A stretch of 64,000 nucleotides of DNA from Spirochaetia bacterium (GTDB lineage: Bacteria; Spirochaetota; Spirochaetia; SZUA-6; Bin103), in assembly GCA_965208575.1 (NCBI GenBank), contig CBDBOV010000004.1, positions 480,001 to 544,000 on the forward strand. The letters run 5' to 3'. This document shows positions 22,409-63,261 of this stretch, in pieces. Position 1 is the stretch's first letter, and each line of letters opens with the position of its first letter. A program made the position numbers and the translations under genes. A model generated the notes under the pieces. The model searched no databases. It was not told the origin of the DNA and saw nothing but the letters and a program-made list of their open reading frames with translations.

Positions 22409-22419
22409 ACGTAGCTCCG

Positions 22420-22602
22420 TATGTAGATTTTTCGAGAGTATTGCGTAGCGGATTGCCGCTCCCTGGCTACTCTCGCGCCCGCAACGCAGACGGCCGGCCA
22501 GACAGAGTCAGATTTGTGAAGCGCGCGGCGTGTGAGTCACCGGGTTCACCCCGGCTCACGCCGCGCGCGCGTGCGGTTCTTTGAGTATCATTCGAACCGC
22601 CT
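22420..22602 (-). promoter_or_regulatory. Conserved structured 5' leader of the SBP operon, copy 1; intron-free allele
   Basis: Homologous to 28890-29076, 44522-44708, 56090-56285 and 61281-61465. Confidence 0.7.
22556..22591 (-). CDS. Putative leader peptide MILKEPHARAA (also the C-terminus of a 140-aa ORF starting at 22978)
   Basis: AGGCGG-N5-ATG; peptide conserved in 5 copies. Confidence 0.55.
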   Translation of the reverse strand: MILKEPHARAA

Positions 22603-28886: not shown

Positions 28887-29029
28887 ACGTTCCTCCGTAT
28901 GTGGATTCTCGAGAGTATTGCGTAGCGGCTTGCCGCTCCCTGGCTACTCTCGCGCCCGCAACGCAGGCGGCCAGACAGAGTCGAATGGGTGACGCGCGCG
29001 GCGTGTGACTCAGCGGGTTCATACCCGGC

Positions 29030-29065
29030 TCACGCCGCGCGCGCGTGCGGTTCTTTGAGTATCAT
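29030..29065 (-). CDS. Putative leader peptide MILKEPHARAA
   Basis: AGGAGG-N5-ATG; stop codon lies inside the hairpin. Confidence 0.6.
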   Translation of the reverse strand: MILKEPHARAA

Positions 29066-29076
29066 TCGAGCCTCCT

Positions 29077-29227
29077 GTGCGCCGGTAAAACCGGCAAGGT
29101 GTTGTGAATGGAAGAGTCATACGTCGAAGGGTTAGCGACCCACGGCGGCTCCGAGTCATGCGCCGCCGCCCGCGAGGGCGGGGGTGAAGCGTTGACAGGG
29201 GTACGTGCGGGCCGGGTATCAAGCCGC
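29077..29227 (+). mobile_element. Group II intron 5' remnant (~150 nt)
   Basis: Starts GTGCG after CCTCCT; matches 56286-56437. Confidence 0.8.
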
Positions 29228-29485
29228 CACGCGTGGCGGTGGTCTGAGCAGCAGTGAGTCTGAATGGCCGCCAACGCCGGCGGTGGGTTTTGCGCGCAGT
29301 TAGTCGCGGGCGGGGATCCGGCACGGTCGCGGTCGCCGACAACGGCATGGGCGGCCCGCATGCCGGTTCGGCTATGGACGGAGCCGGTGCCACCGATAGC
29401 TACGGCGGTAGTGGAGGCGATGGCGTGCGCGGGGGCGCGTAGGGGGCGATCAGCCTGAGCGGTTAATGCTTTTTCTAATAAAGAG

Positions 29486-29674: not shown

Positions 29675-31209
29675 GGGGTGCATTCCGTCAGTGTGGTAGC
29701 GGTCAGGCAGCCTCAAGCTGGATCTGGTTGGATTCTGGGGTGGGCGATGAGGGCAACAGGCTCTCGAAATCGTCCCAGAAGCGACGGCTCTTCGCCGAAG
29801 CGCGGAGCTGAAGCATCTCCTTGGCTCCGTCCAGCGACCAAGTCATCCCACTCTGCTTCATGCGCTTGGCGACGACGTTCTTGCAGGCTCCCTCGACTAT
29901 ACCGCTGCCGATCGGCAGACCGCACGATCGATACAGCGGGTAGTCCATGCGGTGCTGGTTGGCCGTGAAGTAGTTGATCTCGCCCTGGAGGTCGTAGCAC
30001 TGCTTCTCGCTGTAGCGGCCACTGACGTGCAGTTCCTGCAGTTCCTTGATTACGGCGGCGACGCAGCCCTTGCGCAGCAGGCTGCGCCAGCGCTTGAAGG
30101 ATCTCTTGAACTGCTCGCTGCCCTCGCCGTACAACACCTTGCCGATCTTCCCCAAGTGGTCGCAGGCATGCCAGAAATCGAGGATGTGCCAGACCTTCTG
30201 CCCGGGTTCGGACAGCTGGGAGACCCGGTCCCATATCCAATGCGCTCCATCGCCCAGAATCACCAGCACCAGCGCTGCCAGGTGAGCGCTGCGCCGGCTC
30301 ATTTCCACCTCGATCCGGGGAAAGAACTCATCAGCATGCTCGATCCCGGTGACACAGGAGGTCTTGGTGCAGTGCGCTGCACCCTCCCGGTCCACCTTCA
30401 CCGCTGATACCGTCGCTACCTTGGAGTCCCGAAACACGCGATCGTAACTCTTTTTCCCATCTTCAGTTACCCGCTCGTTCGCGCGTGTCGCCACCTTCCC
30501 CGCGTCGATGCCCACGACCATCGTCCCGGTGATCTCTTCGCGCACCGCCACCGGCTCGTCGGCACGCTCGACAATCTCCCGCTGGCGTTGCTCCGCCAAC
30601 CCGTCAGTAACCGCCCGCACCATCTCGAACGCCTTGTTCATCGACACCAGCTCCCGCCCGTCAGGCCGCAACACCTCGTGGAATTGCGCCAGACCCTGCT
30701 CGTAGGACTGCTCGGCGCACCACCGCGCCATGAAGTACTGGCACCCAGGCGTGTACCCGCCCGCGATACCCAGTTGCTCTGTCAGCGGCACCCACCCCTT
30801 GCCACCGCCACCGAGCGGCGCGTAGTAGGCGCGCACCAAGGTGATCACGCCGAACAGCCCATGCAGCGTCTTCCGCCGTCTCCCGACAAAGCGGTACCGA
30901 ACCTCGCCGCGGGTTGCGCGCGCACCGACATACCCATCACCGACTTGCTCACACCAGCGTTGCATCGCTGCACGTCCCGCAGCCACCAGGCACTTCAGCA
31001 TACCGAGCTCCGCGGCGAGCAGATCCCGTGGTCCGCTGCACGGGTTCAGGTCAATCCCGCACCGGGTCTTGCAAAACCGGAGCAACTCCGTTACCAAGGT
31101 CTCACTCATTTTGGTCCCCTCCCAGAGACAGGTCGATGTTTACCACATCACCGAATCTCTGGTCTCTGGGAGGGTTCCTATTCCGCTACCACAGAGAAAG
31201 AATGCACCC
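29675..31209 (-). mobile_element. ISKra4/ISLre2-like (IS256/Mutator-related) element A
   Basis: IR GGGTGCATTC...GTGGTAGCGG / CCGCTACCAC...GAATGCACCC; 8-bp DR GAACTCAC at 29667 and 31210. Confidence 0.88.
29703..31109 (-). CDS. ISKra4/ISLre2-family transposase
   Basis: GDGAHWIW, LDFWHA, PIGSGIVEGACK. Confidence 0.9.
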   Translation of the reverse strand: MSETLVTELLRFCKTRCGIDLNPCSGPRDLLAAELGMLKCLVAAGRAAMQRWCEQVGDGYVGARATRGEVRYRFVGRRRKTLHGLFGVITLVRAYYAPLGGGGKGWVPLTEQLGIAGGYTPGCQYFMARWCAEQSYEQGLAQFHEVLRPDGRELVSMNKAFEMVRAVTDGLAEQRQREIVERADEPVAVREEITGTMVVGIDAGKVATRANERVTEDGKKSYDRVFRDSKVATVSAVKVDREGAAHCTKTSCVTGIEHADEFFPRIEVEMSRRSAHLAALVLVILGDGAHWIWDRVSQLSEPGQKVWHILDFWHACDHLGKIGKVLYGEGSEQFKRSFKRWRSLLRKGCVAAVIKELQELHVSGRYSEKQCYDLQGEINYFTANQHRMDYPLYRSCGLPIGSGIVEGACKNVVAKRMKQSGMTWSLDGAKEMLQLRASAKSRRFWDDFESLLPSSPTPESNQIQLEAA

Positions 31210-31217
31210 GAACTCAC

Positions 31218-32655
31218 GGGTGCGAACGCCGAAAGCGGTAGCAAATCATTGACTCTGAGGCGGAAAAAAGGTCTACCTACCCCACGACACCACACCATGG
31301 GGAGGTAGACCATGAATACGGAAGGACTTATAACGGCCGCCGAGGGCCTTGTCAAGGAGTTGCAAGGGCGCATCAACGGCGGCCGGATGGATCTCCAGGA
31401 GGCGGAAGCCAAGATCCTTGAGATGGTGAACTGGATCGGCGACGAGATGGTGCAGGAAGTGGTAGCCGGACTCGCGGAGCCGACATCCGCCAACCAGATC
31501 ACGGTTGGCGGTGAGGTGGCAGTGTTCGAGCGGGTGCGTAACCTGCGGTTCATCAACCGCTTCGGCGAAGAAGTGGTGCACCCGCGGCGCTGCTACCGGT
31601 ACCGGCACCGGAGCGGAGGCGTGGCGCCGCTGGATGTGAAGCTGGGGATCGACGGGTGCTTCGGATTCTCACCGCTGATGACGTACCTGATCTGCATGCT
31701 GGGCGCGGATGAGTCGTATGCCGGTGCAGCGGCAAAACTGGAGGCGATGCTCGGGTTCAAGGTGAGCTCGACGGCGGTGCAGCGCACTACCGAGAAGACG
31801 GGAGAGCGGATACCCGATACCCCCGACGATCTAATTGATGAGCAGCGTCAGCGGCAGCCATGTTCCCTGATGGTGGTCGAGGTAGACGGAACGACGAGCC
31901 CGCAGATCACGGAGCAGGAAGGGATTACTGGTCTTGCCAGCCTCCGGGCGCCGACCTGTTACAAGGAGTGCAACCTGATAGTCATCGAGAAGCACGATGA
32001 TGGCAAGGTGATCGACCGCTGGACCGGAGGACGCTATGGACCACGCGGTGAGTTTGCCGGCTACGCCGAGCAGGCTGGACTGCGAATGGGCTTCCTGGAC
32101 GCTCCACGAACGCTGTTCCTCGGTGATGGTGCACACCACAACTGGGAACTGCAGCAGACCCACTTCCCCGGCGCGATACCGATCCTGGACTACTACCACG
32201 CGGCTGAGCACCTCGCCGATTACTGCAAGCTGCTGTCTGCTACGCTACGCGATGCCGTCGAGCGCAGCTTGTCCACGATGATGTGGGAAGGCGAGGTGCT
32301 GCAGATGATCCACGAGATGAAGCGTTCACTGTCGAAGGTCACCGATACTGACGAAGCGTGGAAGCAGATCAACTACTTCACGAACAACCAGGACCGTATG
32401 GACTATGCCCGTTACCGCGATCTCGGGTGGCCGATCGGCAGTGGCTTGGTCGAAGGGCAGTGCAAATTGGTTGTCGGTCGACGCTTCAAGGGCAACGGGA
32501 TGAGATGGCGACCGCACGACAACCGCTGCGTGCTACGCACCCGTCTGGCTCTGCTCAACGGCGACCTCAAGCGCTATTTCAGTCCTCCTGACGACTGCGA
32601 GATCAAAGCGGCCTGATCGTGTCAACCCCTGTTACCGCTTTTGGCATTGGCACCC
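31218..32655 (+). mobile_element. ISKra4/ISLre2-like element B, copy 1
   Basis: IR GGGTGCGAACGCCGAAAGCGGTA / TACCGCTTTTGGCATTGGCACCC; DR GAACTCAC at 31210 and 32656. Confidence 0.88.
31312..32616 (+). CDS. ISKra4/ISLre2-family transposase
   Basis: GDGAHHNW, LDYYHA, PIGSGLVEGQCK. Confidence 0.9.
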   Translation: MNTEGLITAAEGLVKELQGRINGGRMDLQEAEAKILEMVNWIGDEMVQEVVAGLAEPTSANQITVGGEVAVFERVRNLRFINRFGEEVVHPRRCYRYRHRSGGVAPLDVKLGIDGCFGFSPLMTYLICMLGADESYAGAAAKLEAMLGFKVSSTAVQRTTEKTGERIPDTPDDLIDEQRQRQPCSLMVVEVDGTTSPQITEQEGITGLASLRAPTCYKECNLIVIEKHDDGKVIDRWTGGRYGPRGEFAGYAEQAGLRMGFLDAPRTLFLGDGAHHNWELQQTHFPGAIPILDYYHAAEHLADYCKLLSATLRDAVERSLSTMMWEGEVLQMIHEMKRSLSKVTDTDEAWKQINYFTNNQDRMDYARYRDLGWPIGSGLVEGQCKLVVGRRFKGNGMRWRPHDNRCVLRTRLALLNGDLKRYFSPPDDCEIKAA

Positions 32656-32663
32656 GAACTCAC

Positions 32664-34102
32664 GGGTGCGAACGCCGAAAGCGGTAGCAAATCATTGACT
32701 CTGAGGCGGAAAAAAGGTCTACCTACCCCACGACACCACACCATGGGGAGGTAGACCATGAATACGGAAGGACTTATAACGGCCGCCGAGGGCCTTGTCA
32801 AGGAGTTGCAAGGGCGCATCAACGGCGGCCGGATGGATCTCCAGGAGGCGGAAGCCAAGATCCTTGAGATGGTGAACTGGATCGGCGACGAGATGGTGCA
32901 GGAAGTGGTAGCCGGACTCGCGGAGCCGACATCCGCCAACCAGATCACGGTTGGCGGTGAGGTGGCAGTGTTCGAGCGGGTGCGTAACCTGCGGTTCATC
33001 AACCGCTTCGGCGAAGAAGTGGTGCACCCGCGGCGCTGCTACCGGTACCGGCACCGGAGCGGAGGCGTGGCGCCGCTGGATGTGAAGCTGGGGATCGACG
33101 GGTGCTTCGGATTCTCACCGCTGATGACGTACCTGATCTGCATGCTGGGCGCGGATGAGTCGTATGCCGGTGCAGCGGCAAAACTGGAGGCGATGCTCGG
33201 GTTCAAGGTGAGCTCGACGGCGGTGCAGCGCACTACCGAGAAGACGGGAGAGCGGATACCCGATACCCCCGACGATCTAATTGATGAGCAGCGTCAGCGG
33301 CAGCCATGTTCCCTGATGGTGGTCGAGGTAGACGGAACGACGAGCCCGCAGATCACGGAGCAGGAAGGGATTACTGGTCTTGCCAGCCTCCGGGCGCCGA
33401 CCTGTTACAAGGAGTGCAACCTGATAGTCATCGAGAAGCACGATGATGGCAAGGTGATCGACCGCTGGACCGGAGGACGCTATGGACCACGCGGTGAGTT
33501 TGCCGGCTACGCCGAGCAGGCTGGACTGCGAATGGGCTTCCTGGACGCTCCACGAACGCTGTTCCTCGGTGATGGTGCACACCACAACTGGGAACTGCAG
33601 CAGACCCACTTCCCCGGCGCGATACCGATCCTGGACTACTACCACGCGGCTGAGCACCTCGCCGATTACTGCAAGCTGCTGTCTGCTACGCTACGCGATG
33701 CCGTCGAGCGCAGCTTGTCCACGATGATGTGGGAAGGCGAGGTGCTGCAGATGATCCACGAGATGAAGCGTTCACTGTCGAAGGTCACCGATACTGACGA
33801 AGCGTGGAAGCAGATCAACTACTTCACGAACAACCAGGACCGTATGGACTATGCCCGTTACCGCGATCTCGGGTGGCCGATCGGCAGTGGCTTGGTCGAA
33901 GGGCAGTGCAAATTGGTTGTCGGTCGACGCTTCAAGGGCAACGGGATGAGATGGCGACCGCACGACAACCGCTGCGTGCTACGCACCCGTCTGGCTCTGC
34001 TCAACGGCGACCTCAAGCGCTATTTCAGTCCTCCTGACGACTGCGAGATCAAAGCGGCCTGATCGTGTCAACCCCTGTTACCGCTTTTGGCATTGGCACC
34101 CC
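32664..34102 (+). mobile_element. ISKra4/ISLre2-like element B, copy 2
   Basis: Tandem copy with 1446-bp period; DR GAACTCAC at 34103. Confidence 0.88.
32758..34062 (+). CDS. ISKra4/ISLre2-family transposase, identical copy
   Basis: Identical translation to 31312-32616. Confidence 0.9.
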   Translation: MNTEGLITAAEGLVKELQGRINGGRMDLQEAEAKILEMVNWIGDEMVQEVVAGLAEPTSANQITVGGEVAVFERVRNLRFINRFGEEVVHPRRCYRYRHRSGGVAPLDVKLGIDGCFGFSPLMTYLICMLGADESYAGAAAKLEAMLGFKVSSTAVQRTTEKTGERIPDTPDDLIDEQRQRQPCSLMVVEVDGTTSPQITEQEGITGLASLRAPTCYKECNLIVIEKHDDGKVIDRWTGGRYGPRGEFAGYAEQAGLRMGFLDAPRTLFLGDGAHHNWELQQTHFPGAIPILDYYHAAEHLADYCKLLSATLRDAVERSLSTMMWEGEVLQMIHEMKRSLSKVTDTDEAWKQINYFTNNQDRMDYARYRDLGWPIGSGLVEGQCKLVVGRRFKGNGMRWRPHDNRCVLRTRLALLNGDLKRYFSPPDDCEIKAA

Positions 34103-34900: not shown

Positions 34901-35148
34901 GCAGTATTCGACCGGCAGCCGCCGACGTTCGGCTGACAGTCTCACCCGGCAATATGGGCATTGCTGAGAGTACGAGCCTCCTCCCTCGTTCCCGGTGACC
35001 CACGCATGTGTTGGAGGTCCATGCCGGTGCGACGATTATATTTGATATGTAACACGTGCCTTCAAGGGGCACGAACGAAAGTCGGAAGATAGTTTCCACT
35101 TTACGGAGTTCTATCCTCGACTTAGAATGTGTCCCTGAAGGGCACGAA

Positions 35149-35982
35149 ATGCTCATGAACAGTACACCGCTCAAGACCCTGGGGCCCCAGGCGGCGAAGT
35201 TGTTGACGGCGCTCCACGAACGGAGCCGTGCTGTTTTCCGCCTTGAGGATGTCCGGGACATCACGGGTCTCTCCGAAACCTCCGCGAGGAGCTTCACCCG
35301 CAAGCTCGTGAACCGGGGTGTGGCGGCCCGGCTCAAGTCCGGTCTCTACGTCCTGGTCCCCTTCGAGCTGGGAAGGGAGCGGCACTACCTGGGAAACCCT
35401 CTCGTCGTCGCCCGAGAGATCATGCACGGGGAGGACTACTACCTCTCGCACGCCACCGCCATGGAGATCCACGGCATGACGACCCAGCCCCAACTGGTAG
35501 TCATAGTCAGCACCCTGAAGCCCCGGCGATCCCTGACCGCGCTGGGCGTGGAATTCCGGTTCGTTTGCTGCCGGCACAAGCACCTCTTCGGGCTCACTGA
35601 CCACTGGGCGACCAAGCAGGAGAAAGTGCGCGTGAGCGACCTGGAGAGGACGATTATCGACGGACTCAAGCAGCCCGAGCATTGCGGCGGGCTGACCGAG
35701 GTCGCCAAGGGCCTTTGGATGCGGCGCGAGGACGTGAAGGTCGACCGGCTTGTCCAGTACGCCGAGCGGATCGGTGTCGGCGCCGTCGTGCGCCGGCTGG
35801 GGTTCCTGCTGGAGACCTACGAGATAGCCGCGCCGCCGGATCTGGACCGTGTTCGCGCCGGCTTGACGGCGACCTACGTCCGCCTCGACCCGGTCCTTCC
35901 GGCCGAGGGGAAACACCTGCGCCGCTGGCGCCTTCAACTCAACGTCGATCCCCAAGAGCTCCGCGCCGTCGTGAGGACCTGA
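35149..35982 (+). CDS. Type IV TA antitoxin, AbiEi family
   Basis: N-terminal wHTH, RLKSGLY, YYLSHATAM, SDLERTIID; upstream imperfect palindromes at about 35055-35074 and 35128-35147. Confidence 0.85.
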   Translation: MLMNSTPLKTLGPQAAKLLTALHERSRAVFRLEDVRDITGLSETSARSFTRKLVNRGVAARLKSGLYVLVPFELGRERHYLGNPLVVAREIMHGEDYYLSHATAMEIHGMTTQPQLVVIVSTLKPRRSLTALGVEFRFVCCRHKHLFGLTDHWATKQEKVRVSDLERTIIDGLKQPEHCGGLTEVAKGLWMRREDVKVDRLVQYAERIGVGAVVRRLGFLLETYEIAAPPDLDRVRAGLTATYVRLDPVLPAEGKHLRRWRLQLNVDPQELRAVVRT

Positions 35983-35985
35983 TCC

Positions 35986-36825
35986 ATGATCGCGCAGCGC
36001 GATCTCTCGCTTCTTTCCAACCGACTCGCCCAGCGGGGAGGCCGGCGTATCCCGGAGACCGTCCTGGAGCGCGACTACTGCCTCTCGTGGCTTCTGGTCG
36101 GACTGTCCCGCAGCCCGCTGCGGGAGCGCCTGGCGTTCAAGGGCGGGACCGCGCTCAAGAAGTGCTACTTCGCGGATTACCGGTTCTCGGAGGATCTGGA
36201 CTTCATGTTGACCCAGGAGACGCCGTGGGAGAAGATCGAACGGAACCTGGCGAGGGCGTTCGAGGAGACACGCAGCGTTTCCGGCGTGGAGTTCCGTCTC
36301 GACCACCTCGACCGTCGTGCCCACGAGAACAGCTACACGTTCTACCTGGCCTACGAAGGACCGCTTCCGCGGGCGCGCGGCAAGACCGTCAAGATCGACA
36401 TCACGATCCGGGAGCGCATCGTCCTGCCTCTGGAGGACCGCCCGGTCCTGCGCGGGTACGAGGAGTACCGCGATCTACCCGAGGACGTCCGGGTCCGGGT
36501 CTACTCCCTGAACGAGACGGCACTCGAGAAGATCGTCGCGCTCCTGGACCGGGCCCGGAACGAGCCGCGCGACCTTTACGACCTGTGGTTCCTCACGTCG
36601 GGCGGCCACGTGAACCTGTCCGACTTGGTCAATCCCGTGGCGCAGAAGCTGGAGTTCCGGGGGTTGACACTGGCGCAGGTGGGCAAAGAGTTCACCGCCA
36701 AGGAGGCACGCTACAAGAAGCTGTGGCAGGTCCGCCTCGCGGCGCAGATGGCCGAGCTCCCCGAGTTCAACGCGGTCTACCGCGAGGTCCGGCGCGCCCT
36801 CCGGCAGGGAGGCCTCAGCGGATAA
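35986..36825 (+). CDS. Type IV TA toxin, AbiEii nucleotidyltransferase
   Basis: LERDY, FKGGTALKK, RFSEDLDF, EK..A, RDLYDL. Confidence 0.92.
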   Translation: MIAQRDLSLLSNRLAQRGGRRIPETVLERDYCLSWLLVGLSRSPLRERLAFKGGTALKKCYFADYRFSEDLDFMLTQETPWEKIERNLARAFEETRSVSGVEFRLDHLDRRAHENSYTFYLAYEGPLPRARGKTVKIDITIRERIVLPLEDRPVLRGYEEYRDLPEDVRVRVYSLNETALEKIVALLDRARNEPRDLYDLWFLTSGGHVNLSDLVNPVAQKLEFRGLTLAQVGKEFTAKEARYKKLWQVRLAAQMAELPEFNAVYREVRRALRQGGLSG

Positions 36826-42703: not shown

Positions 42704-44518
42704 CTAATAACCCATGGATTCCTTCAGCTCGGAATCAATCCAGACGCGGGCGTGGATGCTATTAAACCGTATATCTCCAAACCTCATTTCACCGTTAAAA
42801 CCTTTCACCCACGGCTGGCTTGCCTGATACCATGCAGCCACAGGAGCCCATATCTGAAAGTGCTGCTTTAGTGCTTCCATACCAAACTCTTTTGCCGCCT
42901 TCATCTGCTCATCGATGTTAGTGGCACCGAAAAAGGCATCTTGGGCGGCGGCCAGCACAGGGTTCTCGACTCCTCCGCCCACGCTTGCCCTTCGCCAAAG
43001 CTGTTCCGCGCCATAATGTCCCATGCCCCAGCTCGGGCCCTCTATGGCCATGTAGCCATAAATCGACTCATAGGTATTTTCCCTCTTGGCAGCGGCTAGA
43101 GTCGCCCATTCGACAACACTAATCGATACATCAACGCCAATATCAGCCCAGTAGCCGGCGACTATTTCATATAAGCCCACATCTCCGACGTCACGGTGCT
43201 GATGTTCGACCTTGAATCGGACGCCGTCCGCGCCGCGCGGATATCCTGCCTCATCGAGGAGCCTCTCAGCACCTTCCGGGTCGTAGGTGTAGTATTGCTT
43301 GAGCTCTGCGGGCCACTCTTCCCATTCGGTGTAATACCCCTTGGCGCCGATGAAGCGAGGTTGATCCCACTGGGCGAAACCGCCAAAGTAGGTATCGCTA
43401 ATCGTCTCCAGGTCCAGTGCCATCTGCAGTGCGTGGCGTACTCTGATGTCGTCAAAGGGGGCGTTGTGCGTGTTCAGTATCGCAGCCTCCGACCGCAGCT
43501 CAAATGGCCATGTCGCGATTTCGGGGTTGGTCCGCTGGAGGCTATTTATCACGTCGATGGATCTTATCTCATCAGCAGCGCTGCGTATCATATCAATCTT
43601 ACCCGAGCGCAGTGCCGATAGACGCGTCGCTTCTTCCGCCATATGCAGGCCCACTAACTTGTCAATATAGGGCAAGCGGTTCTCCGGGTATTTTTCGTCG
43701 TAGCCCCAGTAGTCAGGATTCTTGTCAAAGGTTAGAGAGCTGCCCTCGACGTAGTCGGTCAGCATAAAGGGCCCGGTGCCTACCACGTTCTTCCAGTCCG
43801 TATAGTCGCCGTATTTCTCGATTACCTCGGGGGGCAATATCCAGACCAAAAAACCTTGGGTGATGATAGCCTCCAGCACAGCGAAAACAGGGCGTGGCTC
43901 CGTCAACTTCATAACAACCGTATATTTGTCGGTGGCCTCTATCGATTCCCATGGCAGATCGATAGCTGGTCTTTTCTCGAAAGGAGGTTCGGTGAAGTCG
44001 CCCAGAACCAAATTACGCTGATAGTTATAGACGACATCCTGGGCAGTTAGCTCCCGACCACCTACCAGGCGGCTGGCCTCACTGTCTGGGTCAAGGGCGT
44101 AGTGAACGCCCTGGCGGATGTGGAATACGTACGTCAGTGGGTCGGGCGTTTCCCAGCTTTCCGCCAGCTGCCCGGTGAAAGTAGACAGAGGGATGTAAGG
44201 GGTTCTAAAGGCGAATTCGTCCCTATCTATTCCCCAGTCCGGGACGGCGAGAGCCTCATTGACACCGTCTATGATGAAGCCCGCATAGCTGCCAGTAACA
44301 AAGGGGGCGGTAGTTTCGCCTATTAAGGCATACGAATAGGTCAATGTCCCGCCATACTCTGGCGCGGTCACCACCTTGCCGGTGGTGGGGTCGGTCACAT
44401 ACTTCTTGTCGGCAGCGGCTGCCGGCTCCTCTTCTGCGCCAGCGGCCCAGAGGCCGGTTGCGGTCAGGACCAGAACCAACGCAACCGCGAGGGTCCTGGT
44501 AATCTGTACAATATTCAT
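42704..44518 (-). CDS. Family-5 SBP, cassette 3
   Basis: Same N-terminus as the 28886 SBP; YWGYDEKYPENRLPY. Confidence 0.92.
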   Translation of the reverse strand: MNIVQITRTLAVALVLVLTATGLWAAGAEEEPAAAADKKYVTDPTTGKVVTAPEYGGTLTYSYALIGETTAPFVTGSYAGFIIDGVNEALAVPDWGIDRDEFAFRTPYIPLSTFTGQLAESWETPDPLTYVFHIRQGVHYALDPDSEASRLVGGRELTAQDVVYNYQRNLVLGDFTEPPFEKRPAIDLPWESIEATDKYTVVMKLTEPRPVFAVLEAIITQGFLVWILPPEVIEKYGDYTDWKNVVGTGPFMLTDYVEGSSLTFDKNPDYWGYDEKYPENRLPYIDKLVGLHMAEEATRLSALRSGKIDMIRSAADEIRSIDVINSLQRTNPEIATWPFELRSEAAILNTHNAPFDDIRVRHALQMALDLETISDTYFGGFAQWDQPRFIGAKGYYTEWEEWPAELKQYYTYDPEGAERLLDEAGYPRGADGVRFKVEHQHRDVGDVGLYEIVAGYWADIGVDVSISVVEWATLAAAKRENTYESIYGYMAIEGPSWGMGHYGAEQLWRRASVGGGVENPVLAAAQDAFFGATNIDEQMKAAKEFGMEALKQHFQIWAPVAAWYQASQPWVKGFNGEMRFGDIRFNSIHARVWIDSELKESMGY

Positions 44519-44661
44519 ACGTTCCTCCGTATGTGGATTCTCGAGAGTATTGCGTAGCGGCTTGCCGCTCCCTGGCTACTCTCGCGCCCGCAACGCAGGC
44601 GGCCAGACAGAGTCGAATGGGTGACGCGCGCGGCGTGTGACTCAGCGGGTGCATACCCGGC

Positions 44662-44697
44662 TCACGCCGCGCGCGCGTGCGGTTCTTTGAGTATCAT
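44662..44697 (-). CDS. Putative leader peptide MILKEPHARAA
   Basis: AGGAGG-N5-ATG. Confidence 0.6.
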   Translation of the reverse strand: MILKEPHARAA

Positions 44698-44708
44698 TCG
44701 AGCCTCCT

Positions 44709-44860
44709 GTGCGCCGGTAAAAACCGGCAAGGTGTTGTGAATGGAAGAGTCATACGTCGAAGGGTTAGCGACCCACGGCGGCTCCGAGTCATGCGCCGCC
44801 GCCCGCGAGGGCGGGGGTGAAGCGTTGACAGGGGTACGTGCGGGCCGGGTATCGAGCCGC
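44709..44860 (+). mobile_element. Group II intron 5' remnant
   Basis: GTGCG start; same deletion breakpoint as the 29077 copy. Confidence 0.8.
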
Positions 44861-45119
44861 CACGCGTGGCGGTGGTCTGAGCAGCAGTGAGTCTGAATGG
44901 CCGCCAACGCCGGCGGTGGGTTTTGCGCGCAGTTAGTCGCGGGCGGGGATGCGGGACGGTTGCGGTCGCCTGGAAGGACGCGGGCGGCCAGCATGCCGGT
45001 TTGGCGATGGACCGAGCGGGCGCCACCGATAGCTACGGCGGTGGTGAAGGCGACGGTGTGCGCGCTTTCGCGTACGGGGCGATCAGCCCGAGCGGTTAGT
45101 TGTTCCTCGGTTTCTCGGT

Positions 45120-54290: not shown

Positions 54291-56072
54291 CTATTGCCCT
54301 CCCACCAATTCTTGCTTCAAGGCGCTGTTGATCCAGACACGAGACATAACCGGGCCTACACCACCCGTCCCCGCCGCTGGAGCGAGTTCTCCGTAGTGGT
54401 TTTCCACCCATGGCCAGATACCCAGGTATACATATGGAGTTGGCAAAAGGGCGAAAGCCACAGTAGATAAGGCCTCCTGGTTCAACTCCTTGGTCAGCTT
54501 GTACTTTTCAACCAGGTCCCTTGTATCGTATGCCTGCTGCCATCGCTCTCTAATTTCAGCGTATTCAGGGTGATGCTCGAACATTGGTGTATTATATATC
54601 AGGGGCTCGATGTATCGTCCCTGTATTACACCAAGCGCATCAACACCTCCTCCAACGGTAAACATGGAAAGCGGCCCATGCTCCTTGGCTGTAAACATGG
54701 CATCCATAGTAGTCTTCTCAATCAAATCAATTGAAACGTCGACTCCGATATCAGCCCAGAAAGCTACCAGTAATGAAGCTATATCTTCCCAGGGCTCTAT
54801 TGCATATCCTTGCAGAGTAGCCTCGAAACCGTCCGCGAGTCCCGCCTCGGCTAATAGTTGCCTCGCACGCTCGGGGTTATATTCAAGCTGCTCCCTGATT
54901 GATTCCGGTAGCTTCTCCAGAGGAGTATAGACGGTCTCTGGCAGGTTCGAAGGTGCCGGAAAGTTTAAAATCTCTCCCGCACCACCCCATATATTGGCAA
55001 TAAAGCCTTGTCGATCTATAGCCATGCTCATTGCTTTCCGCACCTTCGGATCGTCAAAGGGCGCCGTATCCAGCCTCATGCCTATTAAGTAGGACCCGCC
55101 TGCTGGTCTCCCGATAAGCTTTATTTCGGGATTTGTATTTTGTAGCGACTGGACGTACTGCGCGCCAACTACATTTAGTTGGTCCAGCCTCCCTGTTCGT
55201 AACGCAGCGATCTGGGCGGCTCTATCCGGTGTCAGAATTTTAACCAGGCGGTCGATGAACGGAATCTCGTATTCCTTGCCATCGATGGTTTCAGTTTGCC
55301 AGTAATTGTCGTTCCTTACGTAACTTACCGAGGTGCCTTCCACGAAGTCATCGAGCAAAAACGGGCCTGTCCCTACCCCGCGATGATTCCTCCAGTCACT
55401 TGGTCCCGCCTCCACCAGCTCCGGAGGACTCGCGATCCACGTCGGTAAATGGCCCCTTCCTATGAGAAGCATCCAATCAGGCGTGTAAGAGGCCAACTTG
55501 AATTCAACCGTGTACTCATCCGTAGCGGTTACCGACTCAACTGCATCATATATGGTCCAGGCCTTGTCTGACGCTAGAGTACGAGTCCAGTGATAAGCTA
55601 CATCCTCCGCTGTCAGCTCCCTTGATGCCATTACTCCCGGCGCTTCATGCCACATGACTCCCCGACGTATGTTGAAAATAACGGTTGTGGCATCGGGCGT
55701 ACTCCAGCTTTCAGCTAACACACCTGATAGAAAATCATTAGGAGGACCTGAACGTACATTGAACGGCCACTCATTGGTGCCACGCGGCCCCCTATTCTGC
55801 CAGTCTCCACCAAGAAGCTGTTCGAAGTGTTCAACATAGACCATTAACGGCCAGACAAACTCAGCTGGGTCCCACTCTGTAGGCGGGAAGCGCCCGAGAT
55901 AAGCGTCCATCATGGTAATCGTCCCACCGTATTCCGGTCCAGCTTCCTCCACCATTTCCGTTTCCATCGCCGCTGCCGGCTCCTCTTCCGTGCTACCGCC
56001 GGCCCAGAGGCCGGTTGCGGAGACCACCAGGACCAACGCAACCGCGAAGGTCATTGTCAAAAGGTTTTTCAT
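54291..56072 (-). CDS. Family-5 SBP, cassette 4 (most divergent)
   Basis: Signal peptide; LAESWS, RELTAEDV, VGTGPF. Confidence 0.92.
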   Translation of the reverse strand: MKNLLTMTFAVALVLVVSATGLWAGGSTEEEPAAAMETEMVEEAGPEYGGTITMMDAYLGRFPPTEWDPAEFVWPLMVYVEHFEQLLGGDWQNRGPRGTNEWPFNVRSGPPNDFLSGVLAESWSTPDATTVIFNIRRGVMWHEAPGVMASRELTAEDVAYHWTRTLASDKAWTIYDAVESVTATDEYTVEFKLASYTPDWMLLIGRGHLPTWIASPPELVEAGPSDWRNHRGVGTGPFLLDDFVEGTSVSYVRNDNYWQTETIDGKEYEIPFIDRLVKILTPDRAAQIAALRTGRLDQLNVVGAQYVQSLQNTNPEIKLIGRPAGGSYLIGMRLDTAPFDDPKVRKAMSMAIDRQGFIANIWGGAGEILNFPAPSNLPETVYTPLEKLPESIREQLEYNPERARQLLAEAGLADGFEATLQGYAIEPWEDIASLLVAFWADIGVDVSIDLIEKTTMDAMFTAKEHGPLSMFTVGGGVDALGVIQGRYIEPLIYNTPMFEHHPEYAEIRERWQQAYDTRDLVEKYKLTKELNQEALSTVAFALLPTPYVYLGIWPWVENHYGELAPAAGTGGVGPVMSRVWINSALKQELVGGQ

Positions 56073-56238
56073 CCTGTCTTCCTTACATGTTATCTCCAGA
56101 GTATTGCGGAGCGAGTTGTCGCTCCCTGGCTACTTTCGGGCCCGCAACGCGGGCGCGCCCGCCAGAGCGGGCTGCCAGTCTGAGTCAGTCAAGTTTTCGG
56201 AAGCGCGCGGCGTGTGACTCACCCGGGTTCACGCCGGC

Positions 56239-56274
56239 TCACGCCGCACGCGCGTGCGGTTCTTTCAGTATCAT
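56239..56274 (-). CDS. Putative leader peptide MILKEPHARAA
   Basis: AGGAGG-N5-ATG; synonymous CTG and CGT variants relative to the other copies. Confidence 0.6.
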   Translation of the reverse strand: MILKEPHARAA

Positions 56275-56285
56275 CTTCACCTCCT

Positions 56286-57525
56286 GTGCGCCGGCACAAA
56301 CCGGCAGGGTGTTGTGAATGAAGGAGTCATACGTCGAAGGGCTAGCGACCCACGGCGGCCCCGAGTCATGCGCCGTCGCTCGTAAGGGCGGGGGTGTAGC
56401 GTTGACAGGGGTACGTGCGGGCCGGGTATCGAGCCGCGAAAGGAATTACTTTGGGGTGCCGACGCCGTAGGAGGATGCGGAAGGCCACACCCGGGGCGCC
56501 GATATCGCGAGGCGCCACGGGACCCTGCGCGGTCATAGACCCCGAGCACGTACGGAAACACCTTGCGCGGGAGCCGGGAGATCCCAGCTTCGTCTGTGGC
56601 GGATGGCGCCGCAGGCCGTGTCGGGAAGTCCAAGGACGTACGCCGACGTTGAACGGAGCTGGGAAGTCGGACAGGCCCATAGTACCTGGGAAACCCGCGA
56701 ACAAGGACGGGAGCTGCCGCAGGCGGCGCGGCTATGGTGAACCCTACACGGGCACGCAGGCGGAAACGCCGGATACAGCCAAGGGAGCACCTACGGCCAC
56801 GCCGGCCGGTAGCGACCGGGCCGCGGAGCGGGTGGAGGAAAGGGGCCTGGCCAAAGGGAATCCGCACCAGCAAAACGCGCCCCGGACACCGCGCCGGCAA
56901 TACGGAGGGGACCTGGAGGCCAACCTCCTGGACCTCTGTGGATGGCTGCAGCGAGGAGCGTACCGGGCGAAGCCGGTGCGGAGGGTGTTCGTCCCCAAGA
57001 GCGACGGGCGGCAACGACCGCTCGGCGTGACGGCGCTGGAAGACAAGATCGTCCAGCGTGCGACAGTCGAAGTGCTGAACACCATCTACGAGACTGACTT
57101 TCTCGGGTTCAGTTACGGGTTCCGACCGGGGCGCAGCAAGTACAATGCGTTGGACGCGCTCTATGTGGGCCTGCTGACACGGAAGGTGAACTGGGTGCTC
57201 GATATGGACATCCGTGGGTTCTTCGATGCCATCGACCACGGCTGGCTGGTGAAGACCGAGCTTCGGCGGCGCCTGCACGATCCGGTCCCGGAGGTGGGAA
57301 GCTGGCTGCGCTCGGTTGTGAGTGGGCACCTGCGTTACTACGGGGTGCCCAGGAACTCCCGCGCACTCCGCCTGTTCCGCCTCCGGGTTGGTCGGCTCTG
57401 GTATCGGTCGATGCGGCGGCGCAGTCAGAAAACCCGGCTTACCTGGGAGCGGATGAGCCGCCTGCTCGACCACTGGTTGCCACCGCCCCGAGTGTGCCAT
57501 CCCTATCCCTTGCACCGCCTTGGCG
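56286..57525 (+). mobile_element. Group II intron with internally deleted RT/maturase; 3' domains V-VI missing
   Basis: GTGCG start; PKSDGRQRPLGV..EDKIVQ, FSYGFRPGR, DMDIRGFFD joined directly to the maturase HLRYYGV..RRRSQK; no YADD. Confidence 0.88.
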
Positions 57526-58544
57526 GGACGGTTGCGGTCGCCTGGAAGGACGAGGGCGGCCAGCATGCCGGTTCGGCGATGGACCGAGCGGGCGCCACCG
57601 ATAGCTACGGCGGTGGTGAAGGCGACGGTGTGCGCGGGGCCGCGTACGGGGCGATCAGCCCGAGCGGTTAGTTGTTTCTCGGTTTCTCGGTTTCTCGGTT
57701 TGAAAAAGTTGGGGGGGGGGGGGGTATGATGCACCGGTCGCGTCACCGGTCGGAGCTTGTCGGCATTGCCGACGAGGTCCGAGCGTGTCGATGGGATGGG
57801 CCAAGAGCGACGCCTCTGGCGTCGGTTTTGGGGCGCGAACCGGTCACTGCGCTGCCTGTCATCGTGACGCTTCATGACCATCCGTCGAACCCCAAGTGAG
57901 GCACGCTAGCATAGGCGCGGCGCGCCGTCAACGACTCGAGGGGGTCACCGGGGTGAGCGAAGGTCACCGGCAACCCGTCACTGCGCTGACTGTCATCATG
58001 GCGCGTCATCATCGATCCGTCGAACCCCAGGCGAGGCAAGCTTGCTGTGGGCGCGGGCACCCTGTCATTTGGGCCGACCCGTGGGACCCGTGCGTGCGCG
58101 GCGGACCGGCAGCCCCGCGGTGTCACGCCGGATGCGCCCACCTGTGGCTCCGTCCTGGCCCCATGGGTGTGCATGCGCCGTCGGCTGCTCCGAAGGCGCG
58201 CCCGGAACGCGCCCGACCAAGTCCACGAGCGTCGGGCTGGGTATGGGCGTGAGCTCACCCGTCAGCCCGAAGCAGCGCCTGGGCACCGCGTCACCGCAGA
58301 CCGAGTCGCCGAAGTGTACTGAGTTAGTGGTCCCGTAGGGCTGGCTCCGAGAAGCGTGGCAGGTGTTGACCCGGGCGACCGGCGACCCCACCGATCTTGA
58401 CGCTGATTTCTCGTACGTCTCCCATCGGTGCACTTTCAATACTCGTCGTCACAGCGAAGCCGGGCACCAGGTATCTCATCACACGACTGACGCGTCGCCG
58501 TTTCGTGGGCCCCGTGACCGGACAGTGCGGGCCATCGGAGAGAT

Positions 58545-60710: not shown

Positions 60711-61280
60711 GTTGGAGTAGGCGATGACCATCGCTGATCACCCCCTCCACAGATCCCGGCGAGCGGAGCTACCGCACCGGGCTCCTGCCTCAGGTATGAC
60801 GCCAAGGCGGTGCAAGGGATAGGGATGGCACACTCGGGGCGGTGGCAACCAGTGGTCGAGCAGACGGCTCATCCGCTCCCAGGTAAGCCGGGTTTTTTGA
60901 CTGCGCCGCCGCATCGACCGATACCAGAGCCGACCAACCCGGAGGCGGAACAGGCGGAGTGCGCGGGGGTTCGTGGGCACCCCGTAGTATCGCAGGTGCC
61001 CACCCACAACCGAGCGCAGCCAGCTTCCCACCTCCGCGACCGAATCGTGCAGGCGCCGCCGAGGCTTGGTCTTCACCTGCCCCAGCTTGGCCTGCAACCG
61101 CTTCCGCATCGTCTGCCTGAGCGCCGTAACCGTCCGTCACTCCACTTCGTCGCGCAGATGTGCGTGAACCCCAGGAAGTCGTACGAGCGACGGCGCATGA
61201 CTCGGGGCCGCCGTGGGTCGGTAACCCTTCGACGTATGACTCTTCCATTCACAACACCTTGCCGGTTTTTGCCGGCGCAC
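60711..61280 (-). mobile_element. Miniaturised group II intron retaining both ends (570 nt)
   Basis: 5' GTGCG at 61280; domain V GAGCCCGGTGCGGTAGCTCCGCTCGCCGGGATC at about 60784-60752; domain VI ends ...CTACTCCAAC at 60711; maturase fragment inside. Confidence 0.88.
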
Positions 61281-61291
61281 AGGAGGTTCGA

Positions 61292-61327
61292 ATGATACTC
61301 AAAGACCCGCACGCGCGCGCGGCGTGA
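61292..61327 (+). CDS. Putative leader peptide MILKDPHARAA
   Basis: AGGAGG(61281)-N5-ATG. Confidence 0.6.
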   Translation: MILKDPHARAA

Positions 61328-61470
61328 GCCGGGGCGAACCCGGTGAGTCACACGCCGCGCGCGTCACCCATTCGACTCTGTCTGGCCGCCTGCGTTGCGG
61401 GCGCGAGACTAGCCAGGGAGCGGCAAGTCGCTCCGCAATACTCTCGAAAAATCCACATAGGGAGAAACCT

Positions 61471-63261
61471 ATGAACATTGTAAGAATTAGAATGACCTTC
61501 GCGTTTGCGTTGGTCCTGATTCTGAGCGCAACCGGCCTGTGGGCCGCCGGCGCAGAAGAGGCGCCGGCAGCCGCTGCCGACAAGAAGTACGTTACCGACC
61601 CCTCCACCGGCAAGGTGGTGACCGCGCCAGAGTACGGCGGGACAATAACCTACGCCAAAGCAGGAGAGCCGCCGAATCCTGACTACATGGTCTCTGCTCA
61701 CGGTCATGGTGCCTTTACCTCTGGCGTTTTAGGGAGGCTGGTAACCGCGGACTGGGCAACGCCCAGAGACAAACATGACTTCGTGTTTCACAACGTTCCA
61801 ACTAACACGATAGGGGGTCTGGCTGAAAGCTGGTCGCAGCCCGACCCACTGACTTATATCGTCAAAGTCCGCCAGGGCGTTCACTGGCACGACAAGGCAC
61901 CGATGAACGGTCGCGAGCTGACTGCCGATGATATCGAGTTCAACTATCACCGTATCTTGGGCCTTGGCAGCGGTTTCACCGAACGTAGTGAACGTGCTAG
62001 TAGCTGGAAGGGTATGCAATTTGAATCGATAACGGCCACCGACAACTGGACGGTTGTTTTTGAGCTAAAGGAGCTAAACCTCCGTGCGCTGGCTGTTATC
62101 CTCGACGACTGGAGTACTGCGATATATCCCCCCGAGGTAATCAGGGAACACGGCGACGCGACCGACTGGCGCAACCTGGTCGGCACCGGACCCTGGATGC
62201 TGACTGACTACGTCGAGGGCAGCTCTATCACCTGGGAAAAGAATCCTGACTACTGGGGCTTCGACGAAAAATACCCGCAGAACCGGCTGCCCTATATTGA
62301 CCGGTTAAGGGCACTGATTATGCCAGAGGCAGCGACACGCCTAGCGGCACTGCGCACGGGTGGGGTTGATTACATGGGTCTGATCGGGGGAACTCAAATG
62401 ACGAGTCTCGACCAGATAAGGAGCCTCCAGCGGACCAACCCCGAACTCGTGTGGTGGCCAATTTACAATCGGTCGGATAATGCGTTTGGTATGAACGTTC
62501 AGTTGCCTCCCTTCGACGACATCAGGGTGCGCAAAGCTATGCAAATGGCAATAAACCTCGAGGAAATTAACAACGCCTATTATGGAGGTACTGCAGATGT
62601 GATACCTCAGGGGCCTCTTACCGTGATGATGACAGAGATTGTCACCCACTTTGAAGATTGGCCCGAAGATGTCAAGAAGGTCTTTGACTACGACCCGGAA
62701 GGTGCCGAAGCGTTGCTTGATGAGGCCGGATATCCTCGCGGCGCGGACGGCATTAGATTTAAGACCGAGTTGCTGCACAGCGAGGCGTTCGATGTAAACT
62801 ATCTAGAATTAGTCGCTTCATACTGGAATAAGATTGGCGTTGATGTAGAGATTGACCTAGCGCCAAGAGCTGAAATTGTTGCTAGAAGTCGTGAGCGGGA
62901 TTTCGAAATGAAAGGTGCGAACGCGGCCCAGAAGTGGTTCCCAATGGTAATGCTAAATAACCTTACGTCGGGAATGCTATGGAACTCGTCCAATGTCGAC
63001 GACCCAGCTTATGACGCCATGTATGAAGCCGCCGGAGCCGCTACCACCCTCGAGGAGCAGAACAGGATAGCTGGAGAGATGAATCAGTATGCAATAGAGA
63101 AGTTCTGGACGATATGGGGTCCCATGCCCCCAAAGTTTCAGCCGACCCAGCCGTGGGTTAAAGGTTTTAACGGTGAATTCGCAATCGGAACCGGTCAACT
63201 ACACCAAGTCTTCGCCCGACTGTGGATTGATAGTGAGCTGAAGGAAGCAATGGGTCATTAG
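61471..63261 (+). CDS. Family-5 SBP, cassette 5 (inverted)
   Basis: Signal peptide; LAESWS, WHDKAPMNGRELTA, YWGFDEKYPQNRLPY. Confidence 0.92.
   Translation: MNIVRIRMTFAFALVLILSATGLWAAGAEEAPAAAADKKYVTDPSTGKVVTAPEYGGTITYAKAGEPPNPDYMVSAHGHGAFTSGVLGRLVTADWATPRDKHDFVFHNVPTNTIGGLAESWSQPDPLTYIVKVRQGVHWHDKAPMNGRELTADDIEFNYHRILGLGSGFTERSERASSWKGMQFESITATDNWTVVFELKELNLRALAVILDDWSTAIYPPEVIREHGDATDWRNLVGTGPWMLTDYVEGSSITWEKNPDYWGFDEKYPQNRLPYIDRLRALIMPEAATRLAALRTGGVDYMGLIGGTQMTSLDQIRSLQRTNPELVWWPIYNRSDNAFGMNVQLPPFDDIRVRKAMQMAINLEEINNAYYGGTADVIPQGPLTVMMTEIVTHFEDWPEDVKKVFDYDPEGAEALLDEAGYPRGADGIRFKTELLHSEAFDVNYLELVASYWNKIGVDVEIDLAPRAEIVARSRERDFEMKGANAAQKWFPMVMLNNLTSGMLWNSSNVDDPAYDAMYEAAGAATTLEEQNRIAGEMNQYAIEKFWTIWGPMPPKFQPTQPWVKGFNGEFAIGTGQLHQVFARLWIDSELKEAMGH

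Follow-up and report, generated by a model that had tools for sequence, protein, structure and literature searches.

A covarying leader with a mini-ORF precedes SBP_bac_5 importer operons in one genus of Spirochaetia

A repeated leader ahead of importer operons

The analysed window, by which we refer to the whole stretch of 64,000 nt, stems from a Spirochaetia genome of 6.5 Mb and 67% G+C, and encodes at 61471..63261 on the forward strand a solute-binding protein (SBP) of 596 aa that belongs to the SBP_bac_5 family (Pfam PF00496, E 5.8e-66). The substrate of this protein is left unassigned because its score lies below every NCBIfam equivalog cut-off. A sequence-only reading of the window had flagged the 91 nt preceding this gene (61375..61465) as one of five copies of an RNA element placed just 5' of each SBP ribosome-binding site. 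The IUPAC motif given there does yield five exact matches in the window, one on the forward strand (61392-61441) and four on the reverse strand (22438-22487, 28915-28964, 44547-44596 and 56101-56150), and it matches none of 100 dinucleotide shuffles. The core TAGCCAGGG is present exactly at all five sites. The placement also holds, with the 3' end of each copy lying 20-30 nt before the SD/ATG of the next gene. Pfam identifies this gene in each case as an SBP_bac_5 gene of about 600 aa followed by two permease genes, and the row formed by these operons contains no ATPase gene.

A flanked alignment of the five sites revealed that the flagged 91 nt constitute the 3' part of a longer repeat. The sites share about 190 nt that open with a purine-rich SD followed by an ATG, span two GC-rich regions and reach the SBP gene's own SD and ATG, and their similarity extends into the signal-peptide codons. 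The leader as a whole spans about 185 nt in the 5' region of the mRNA for an ABC importer operon made up of the SBP_bac_5 gene and the two permease genes. Using a covariance model of the whole leader (model R1), the four remaining copies were placed on the reverse strand at 22411..22598 (209.6 bits), 28889..29072 (204.5 bits), 44521..44704 (202.3 bits) and 56074..56281 (156.9 bits), preceding the Pfam-assigned SBP genes at 20678-22408, 27078-28886, 42704-44518 and 54291-56072, respectively; the sequence of the last copy contains an extra hairpin before the element described below as hairpin C. The upstream regions of two further SBP_bac_5 genes in the window are unrelated to the leader.

Searches of the source genome returned 61 leader copies with nhmmer and one query sequence, 63 with an nhmmer profile and 62 with model R1. 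A homologue of the window SBP lies immediately downstream and in the same orientation in 59 of the 63 profile hits, and 55 of those 59 homologues are full length. Since these 59 hits sit directly 5' of a single SBP family in a constant orientation, a dispersed repeat of the REP or MITE type was discarded. The family comprises 129 loci in this genome, of which 59 carry the leader and 70 carry other leaders. The named public relatives of the window SBP come from metagenome-assembled genomes labelled Spirochaetia bacterium and from sponge and coral metagenome bins.

Organization of the leader

The leader comprises two modules, described here for the forward-strand copy. Module 1 combines an SD, a mini-ORF and a hairpin (P1). 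Its SD, AGGAGG (61281..61286), is positioned 5 nt ahead of the ATG and is kept as a purine-rich GGAGG in a 54-copy alignment. The mini-ORF (61292..61327) consists of 11 codons and a TGA stop and encodes MILKDPHARAA, the family consensus being MILKEPHARAA. P1 (61315..61362), obtained with RNAalifold and in the MFE fold, is a 12-bp GC hairpin formed by GCGCGCGGCGTG and CACGCCGCGCGC and capped by a variable stem-loop. The 5' arm, GCGCGCGGCGUG (61315-61326), corresponds to mini-ORF codons 8-11 and the stop and pairs with CACGCCGCGCGC at 61351-61362, and the apex of P1 is deleted or enlarged in some copies. Two conserved complementary hexamers, GAGUCA (61345-61350) and CGACUC or UGACUC (61373-61378), flank the 3' arm of P1 and define a candidate pairing in which two pairs changed on both sides, as many as are reached in 54 of 500 shuffles.

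Module 2 corresponds to the flagged part. At its 5' side, CUGGC (61382..61386) is tentatively assigned as the 5' strand of a long-range, pseudoknot-type pairing with GCCAG (61412-61416). Hairpin C (CGCCUGC-GUU-GCGGGCG, 61387..61403) follows, and then helix A (61405..61445), in which GAGACUA (61405-61411; family consensus GAGAGUA) pairs with UACUCUC (61439-61445), with one mismatch in this copy caused by the C at 61409. Helix A is also present in the MFE folds of other copies. Inside this helix lie GCCAG, hairpin B (GGAGCGG-CAAG-UCGCUCC, 61417-61434) and GCAA, and the unpaired GCCAGGG and GCAA are invariant. The remainder (61446..61473) encompasses an A-rich spacer, the SBP SD GGGAG (61460-61464) and the ATG (61471-61473), with the SD/start codon of the SBP gene 15-25 nt beyond helix A. 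A local 6-bp hairpin, CAUAGG/CCUAUG, covers the SBP start codon, and appears in other copies in the compensated form CAUACG/CGUAUG. P1, hairpins B and C, helix A and this small SBP-start hairpin are all recovered by RNAalifold and by single-sequence folds. The two modules can also be found apart: three copies consist of module 2 alone and three of module 1 with hairpin C alone, and the SBP genes are intact in all six.

Evidence for an RNA fold

Covariation was analysed in an alignment of 101 distinct copies, fitted to a covariance model and hence biased towards the structure of that model. Of the 33 pairs in this alignment, 19 had changed on both sides (shuffles, 7.6±1.8; 0/500), namely 5 of 12 in P1, 5 of 7 in hairpin C, 4 of 7 in helix A and 5 of 7 in hairpin B. 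The cells changed on both sides numbered 55, against 13.1±3.3 in shuffles, the aligned sequences being paralogues and close relatives in which evolutionary events are fewer than changed cells; slid controls reached at most 11 pairs and 16 cells. Pairing is possible in 96.3% of the P1 cells, and the compensations in helix A include one pair where A-U became C-G or G-C and an innermost pair where A-U became G-C. An alignment of 60 copies built with MAFFT only gave 9 pairs changed on both sides, compared with 4.3±1.4 in shuffles (2/500). The covariation of the four helices hence provides good, if not final, support for the proposed fold. Furthermore, the fold of the whole leader is unusually stable (z -3.63, 0/200 shuffles as good; antisense fold, z -2.40), and that of the flagged 91 nt on their own is not unusual (z -1.66, 13/200 shuffles as good).

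The ratio of G-U to A-C cells was 61/3 in hairpin C, 25/5 in hairpin B, 13/6 in P1 and 5/6 in helix A. Because G-U cells far outnumber A-C cells in hairpins C and B, these two hairpins fold on the mRNA strand, in line with the earlier argument that substitutions compatible with G-U pairing on the transcribed strand favour an RNA structure over a DNA operator. Two of the local structures described in the sequence-only reading were likewise recovered. The closing pair of its covarying small stem is GC in 36, GU in 17, AU in 2 and CG in 1 of 60 sequences, and unpaired in 4, and its hairpin GYYYGC-GUU-GCGGGC is real, with two Y positions that alternate between C-G and U-G (32/28 and 34/24 of 60 sequences). 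The stem GUUGCG/CGCAAU, said to compete with hairpin C, gained no support. It shows no change on both sides in either the 60 or the 101 sequences, which equals the shuffles; it can pair in 97.5% of cells because both of its sides are conserved, and a divergent subfamily retains GUUGCG and has lost CGCAAU. Of the expression platform or new aptamer that had been suggested, the covarying element at the RNA level is supported, and the switch via GUUGCG/CGCAAU is not. Covariation points instead to a different architecture, in which the GAGAGUA/UACUCUC helix would form around the small hairpin.

APC-corrected mutual information, computed across every pair of columns, was set aside, the subfamily signal of the variable SD region being dominant. 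Two additional pairings were rejected by eye. The mini-ORF start region can pair with the linker (UUCGAAUG/CAUUCGA) in some copies and lacks compensation in others, and pairing of an upstream AUACUC with GAGUA is uncompensated where GAGAG varies in the alignment. Rfam 15 contains no match to the leader, either in the whole window at gathering thresholds, where the three hits obtained are all group II introns, or in 61200-61520 at E <= 10, where an intron fragment outside the leader was the sole hit. This covariance-model search bears out the judgement, originally made by eye, that the element does not correspond to cobalamin, SAH, SAM, TPP, glycine or c-di-nucleotide riboswitches.

A mini-ORF conserved at the amino acid level

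The flagged element had been supposed to act together with a leader peptide, and the mini-ORF found upstream of it shows the third-position variation of a translated sequence. Among the 101 copies, the start codon is ATG in 63, GTG in 12 and TTG in 6, so that 81 of 101 are canonical and 20 of 101 lack a canonical start. Non-consensus counts in codons 3-6 are 3, 3, 4 and 3 at the first position, 9, 3, 3 and 4 at the second and 11, 13, 20 and 23 at the third. In the KEP codons (4-6), 42 variants are synonymous and 14 non-synonymous; about 19% of random single changes are expected to be synonymous (arithmetic from the code table). The concentration of variation at third codon positions argues for translation and for constraint on the first six residues, M-I-L-K-E-P. 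The copies retain the peptide core (I/V)(L/R)KEP, followed by a tail that ranges from 6 to 48 aa, with the stop directly after Pro in the shortest version; frameshifts make the ORF longer in some copies. Judging from this codon pattern, the mini-ORF is likely to be translated and functionally relevant.

The conservation of the KEP codons at the amino acid level (42 against 14) is of the kind associated with nascent-peptide arrest. The conserved part of MILKEPHARAA contains no tandem regulatory codons. When a ribosome stall at the Pro codon was simulated, the accessibility of the SBP SD responded inconsistently, with 12 copies more open and 9 less among 49, and a model in which a ribosome stalled at this codon opens the SBP SD was dropped for lack of a consistent effect. 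The literature on mini-ORF leaders includes work on TnaC (PMC8429421) and on uORFs (PMC10219788, PMC13285730). In those parts of the literature covered by our search, we found no mention of the peptide MILKEP and nothing on this leader or on introns homing to such leaders.

Distribution and conservation

Model R1 was searched against 11 genomes of the genus, yielding 62 copies in the source genome, 85, 43, 35, 33, 5, 2 and 1 in seven others, and none in the remaining three. The eight bearing genomes together hold about 270 copies, with 33-85 in each of the five richest. The same model gave no match in 13 genomes of the sister genus. A 47-position core model of the flagged domain (model R2) identified 68 places in the source genome and had matches in 8 of the 92 genomes of the order, all eight in one genus, with none in the 81 genomes from 26 other genera of the order. 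A 19-mer scan of the species collection produced two hits, in Streptomyces and Clostridiales, which lack the fold and were dismissed as chance.

Conservation of the leader greatly exceeds that of the proteins encoded behind it. Leader-bearing SBPs share a mean amino acid identity of 46%, and the leader cores a mean nucleotide identity of 79% (median 81%). Synonymous sites in the signal peptide are barely more uniform than those in the rest of the SBP gene (0.77 vs 0.70), so a gene-conversion tract reaching into the gene would not explain the pattern, and leader conservation as a by-product of such conversion was discarded. Given that the leader is confined to part of one genus, some of its uniformity could be due not to selection but to gene conversion or a recent spread. 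Conservation within the leader is also uneven, with variable linkers and P1 apex and constant stems, loops and junctions.

This pattern bears on the idea of a constitutive expression leader, whose hairpins would shield the 5' end from RNases while the mini-ORF and A-rich spacer load ribosomes, resulting in high, unregulated SBP output; such a leader would be retained simply for working well. SBPs are typically abundant proteins, with which high output would agree. Stable 5' hairpins and an A-rich tract ahead of the SD are indeed present, and modelling gave no consistent switch. However, stabilizing hairpins tolerate drift, and the present leader shows conserved loops, bulges and linkers together with a constrained peptide; moreover, 70 of the 129 paralogous SBP loci have other leaders. 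We hence regard a purely constitutive function as decidedly unlikely.

A diverged second family of leaders, termed R2 leaders, precedes 13 other SBP paralogues of the source genome. These leaders resemble the flagged leader in their SD and mini-ORF, in their place before sister SBP operons and in the GAGAG...CUCUC core, whose two strands are retained in this family, and differ from it in their 5' sequence and in mini-ORFs of only 1-3 codons. Their core reads GAGAG..G-GCGAGGG(A/G)(G/C)CGGCA-hairpin-(U/C)UCUC-GAA, with an upstream GCCCUCG complementary to GCGAGGG. The counterpart of CUGGC/GCCAG is CUCGC/GCGAG, in the same places, and this swap would be compatible with a hypothetical H-type pseudoknot. 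For pseudoknot stem 1 in this family, the best complementary run was no better than in shuffled flanks.

The second family lends itself to an interpretation of the leader as a binding platform, in which an RNA-binding protein or sRNA recognizing GUU, CAA, GCCAGGG and GCAA would co-regulate all the leader-bearing operons, by repression or activation, with the mini-ORF as an accessory. Loops and junction are conserved to the same extent as stems, which a plain stabilizing hairpin would not need, and GC(C/G)AGGG(A/G)(G/C)CGGCA survives in the R2 family despite a differently paired neighbouring hairpin. Tens of copies per genome are compatible with a regulon, and the GGA sites at the junction and the SD may be CsrA-like. 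The constraint on the mini-ORF at the amino acid level is left unexplained by such a platform, which we deem unlikely.

A new riboswitch appears less probable still. Module 2 would here be the aptamer, possibly an H-type pseudoknot with inserted hairpins, for a small molecule that reports on global state. It is a conserved, covarying structured domain in the 5' UTR, with a fixed place directly 5' of the ribosome-binding site, as is generic for riboswitches. It contains invariant unpaired junction bases, matches no known RNA family and is able to stand alone at an mRNA 5' end. CUGGC/GCCAG and GAGAGUA/UACUCUC could form the H-type pseudoknot, and the related family exchanges G-C for C-G in the putative pseudoknot stem. 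Stem 2 (helix A) of this pseudoknot is supported by covariation, but stem 1 pairs in 90.8% of cells with 2 pairs changed on both sides, as in 136 of 500 shuffles, and 0.085-0.82 of shuffles equal its analogue in the R2 family. Riboswitch classes are usually more widespread than an element found in 8 of 92 genomes of an order, all in one genus. In addition, the 33-85 copies in the five richest genomes precede paralogous importers of presumably different substrates, with no hint of a ligand and no ligand-linked set of genes, and the sole alternative pairing so far proposed, GUUGCG/CGCAAU, does not covary.

Transcription and an adjoining group II intron

Promoter scans detected no sigma-70-like site inside any of 58 leaders, and twelve such sites 142-387 nt ahead of 11 of them. 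A sigma-54 or sigma-70 promoter within the leader was accordingly rejected, sigma-54 sites having been assessed by eye only. One copy consisting of module 2 alone has TTGACA-16-TATGGT immediately ahead of CUGGC. Scans for sense-strand terminators within the leader were negative. Their only sense-strand terminator-like hit, in the copy at 22 kb, comprises the SD/start hairpin and the first coding bases, and the other sites are antisense.

RNA evidence was drawn from assembled contigs of sponge metatranscriptome libraries (four runs, three studies). These contigs cover the leader, and some, belonging to two studies, continue from it into the coding sequence (61428-61516 and 61430-61517). The leader is likewise joined to an adjacent intron remnant (61225-61301), and contigs from paralogues extend 25-83 nt upstream of the mini-ORF. 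The contigs attest to presence and contiguity, and not to a start or level, with a depth that sums many paralogues and possible DNA carry-over; bins lacking coverage carry no meaning.

The intron remnant corresponds to the 5' end of a group II intron (61067..61279, reverse strand), which abuts the 5' edge of the leader, antisense to it and outside of it. It is identified by partial matches to RF02005 at 61200-61243 (E 2.1e-6) and 61067-61243 (30.1 bits). The 5' domains of group II introns in the window lie directly upstream of leader copies and antisense to them, and a group II intron lineage homes to the leader edge. As the homing site of this lineage, the leader ties the spread of a mobile element to a putative regulatory RNA.

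These observations also bear on a DNA-level explanation, be it an operator or promoter before each operon or a selfish repeat propagated by gene conversion, in either case without a function for the RNA. The pseudo-palindromes TGAGTCA and TGACTCA located about 30 bp apart, the high copy number in one narrow clade and the intron lineage homing to the leader edge could all be accommodated by such an element. Against it stand the asymmetry of G-U over A-C cells (61/3 and 25/5), the compensatory changes in four helices, the third-position variation of the mini-ORF, the complete lack of promoter-like sites inside the 58 copies, the constant spacing and orientation that 59 of 63 hits keep relative to one gene family, and the RNA-library contigs that span the leader. 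An element acting at the DNA level is hence highly improbable.

A proposed mode of action

On this evidence, the element is probably a functional RNA leader. We tentatively propose, at somewhat short of even chances, that it is a lineage-specific, translated cis-regulatory leader, belonging to no described RNA family, through which importer operons come under shared control. The occurrence of the leader before 33-85 paralogous importers in each of the five richest genomes suggests a single global signal, rather than the substrate of each transporter, and all leader-bearing importer operons are probably under one shared control.

The proposed cis-regulatory leader would act post-transcriptionally, influencing how much the SBP operon yields. 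To translate the mini-ORF, a ribosome would have to melt P1, which buries the last codons and the UGA. In helix A, the SD-like GAGAGUA would hold the CU-rich, anti-SD-like UACUCUC. The closed helix would thus keep the CU-rich strand off the SBP SD, corresponding to an ON state, and its opening would allow the CU tract and local hairpins to mask the SBP start region. Helix A might be opened by ribosomes moving along the mini-ORF, or by the binding of a small molecule, protein or RNA at the conserved junction. Blocking GAGAG produced a small effect on SD accessibility, seen in silico only, with the probability of an unpaired SD falling from 0.62 to 0.50; among 34 copies, 11 dropped by more than 0.15 and 1 rose. 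This logic of SD, anti-SD and SD mimic is doubtful as a description of the mechanism.

Structured leaders with mini-ORFs are a known form of bacterial gene control, as a rule with one or a few copies in a genome. The leader described here is absent from Rfam and precedes 33-85 importer operons per genome in the five richest genomes of a clade of uncultivated spirochaetes of sponge type. If regulatory, it would delimit in a symbiont a very large nutrient-uptake regulon controlled post-transcriptionally, and its approximately 270 natural variants would provide material to dissect the interplay of mini-ORF, hairpin and SD-mimic helix. A more far-reaching interpretation, which we consider rather improbable, is that module 2 is a pseudoknotted sensor RNA, or the MILKEP mini-ORF a nascent-peptide sensor, of a kind not previously described. 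If this were true, a single signal would govern as many as 85 ABC importer operons in one genome of 4.9 Mb, or about one per 58 kb, and the sponge symbiont could switch its entire nutrient-uptake repertoire at once. To our knowledge, this would be the largest regulon of a single cis-acting RNA element in a bacterium. Even if merely stabilizing, the leader would still be useful for annotation, as a mark of true 5' UTRs and gene starts in a family of 129 members.

Comparison with known systems

Several established systems share features with the leader. The amino acid operon attenuators trpL and hisL likewise have a leader peptide that overlaps the 5' arm of a strong hairpin, encoded here by an ORF with its own SD (AGGAGG-N5-ATG), but the flagged leader has neither a run of regulatory codons nor a sense-strand U-tract terminator. 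In enterobacteria, the GcvB sRNA controls the SBP mRNAs dppA and oppA, and CsrA controls cstA, in both cases post-transcriptionally. The common element would be a global factor that acts at the 5' UTRs to co-regulate the mRNAs of peptide-type SBP_bac_5 importers. The targets of GcvB and CsrA present short C/A-rich or GGA sites, whereas the flagged leader presents a conserved fold of 185 nt with a mini-ORF.

SAM-II and preQ1-II are translational riboswitches built on H-type pseudoknots. The flagged leader resembles them in its compact fold directly 5' of the ribosome-binding site, in its invariant junction bases and, possibly, in a pseudoknot with an inserted hairpin. It differs from them in the absence of any Rfam match at E <= 10, in a 3' strand that resembles an anti-SD and not an SD, in its very narrow phylogenetic range and in a stem 1 that is putative.

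The tnaC-tnaAB, ermCL-ermC and speFL-speF systems are nascent-peptide or mini-ORF leaders, in which a long structured leader begins, as here, with a short ORF that has an SD of its own. The conserved peptide sequence, the UGA stop set against a stable structure and the regulated gene in cis are further points in common with leaders of the tnaC type. Unlike these, the flagged leader constrains six residues only and has no evident stall, effector, rut site or terminator. Its 33-85 copies per genome, in the five richest genomes, go far beyond any tnaC-, ermCL- or speFL-type system known to us.

Expansion of the SBP family and variants of its leader

A single family of SBP_bac_5 solute-binding proteins (SBPs), of about 600 aa, has expanded to an extreme degree in the 6.5-Mb source genome (G000), where it occupies 129 loci. 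Two permease genes, and no ATPase gene, are present in the operons observed within the window.

Natural variants of the structured leader preceding these operons were identified in the same genome. Three leaders (L235, G000:C6:43793-44033; L233, G000:C4:396203-396443; L234, G000:C6:791702-791942) comprise only the 3' domain, which encompasses hairpin C and helix A with the enclosed hairpin B, and one of the three is directly preceded by a good sigma-70-like promoter. Three others (G000:C6:140776-141032, G000:C6:963894-964151 and G000:C3:713513-713773) present the mini-ORF, the P1 hairpin and hairpin C, without helix A and hairpin B.

A diverged second leader family, R2, was detected upstream of 13 other SBP paralogues of this genome (L220-L232; for example, G000:C6:172574-172814). 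Both families share the core GAGAG..GCGAGGG(A/G)(G/C)CGGCA..CUCUC. The mini-ORFs of R2 span one to three codons (e.g. GUG AAG AAG UAA; AUG UAA), and its hairpin insertions are variable.

Some copies of the main leader carry an extra hairpin directly before or after hairpin C (window positions 56150-56185, minus strand; L170, L171 and L166), with a similar stem sequence and different loops (UCUG, CUUG). A lone 3'-domain fragment with no SBP gene behind it, located in a public MAG contig (L210, 229-297, minus strand), is apparently a relic of rearrangement. Another hairpin spans the SBP start codon (22406-22423 and 61456-61473). In the antisense orientation it has a T run after it and its score is terminator-like; on the sense strand, this T run is the A-rich tract preceding the SBP SD.

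A group II intron at the leader edge

Genome-wide, a single group II intron lineage, with 5' end GTGCGCCGG..., lies antisense to the leader, a few bases 5' of the leader SD. All nine Rfam-detected copies of this lineage share this insertion spot, and the intron is present at the edge of roughly 21 of 57 leaders, as counted by eye. The full-length copy (56300-58300, plus strand) encloses a 418-aa RT/maturase ORF (56415-57671). The other copies are remnants of 140-190 nt, including those antisense to the leader at 44705-44885 and 29075-29252 (plus strand) and at 61067-61279 (minus strand). SBP genes downstream of intron-bearing leaders are intact. The leader edge is evidently the homing site of this lineage.

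The stretches separating the window operons also hold mobile and defence genes: a DDE_Tnp_1 transposase gene present twice (3120-4481 and 5032-6393, plus strand), an ISKra4-family transposase (29703-31109, minus strand), a duplicated UPF0236-like ORF (31312-32616 and 32758-34062, plus strand) and an AbiEi/AbiEii toxin-antitoxin pair (35056-36825, plus strand).

SBP homologues in other genomes

Homologues of the SBP from other genomes (L057-L119, in public MAG contigs; L060, L066) differ in this respect. Dehalococcoidia SBP homologues present an N-terminal protein repeat, VPGETVVVEKEVVKE-like, in place of long leaders of the kind found in other, low-GC MAGs. In these MAGs, the SBP homologues are preceded by distinct leaders that are likewise long and conserved but AT-rich; these are 80-95% identical among paralogues and hold repeated modules of an SD and a short ORF, together with small hairpins.
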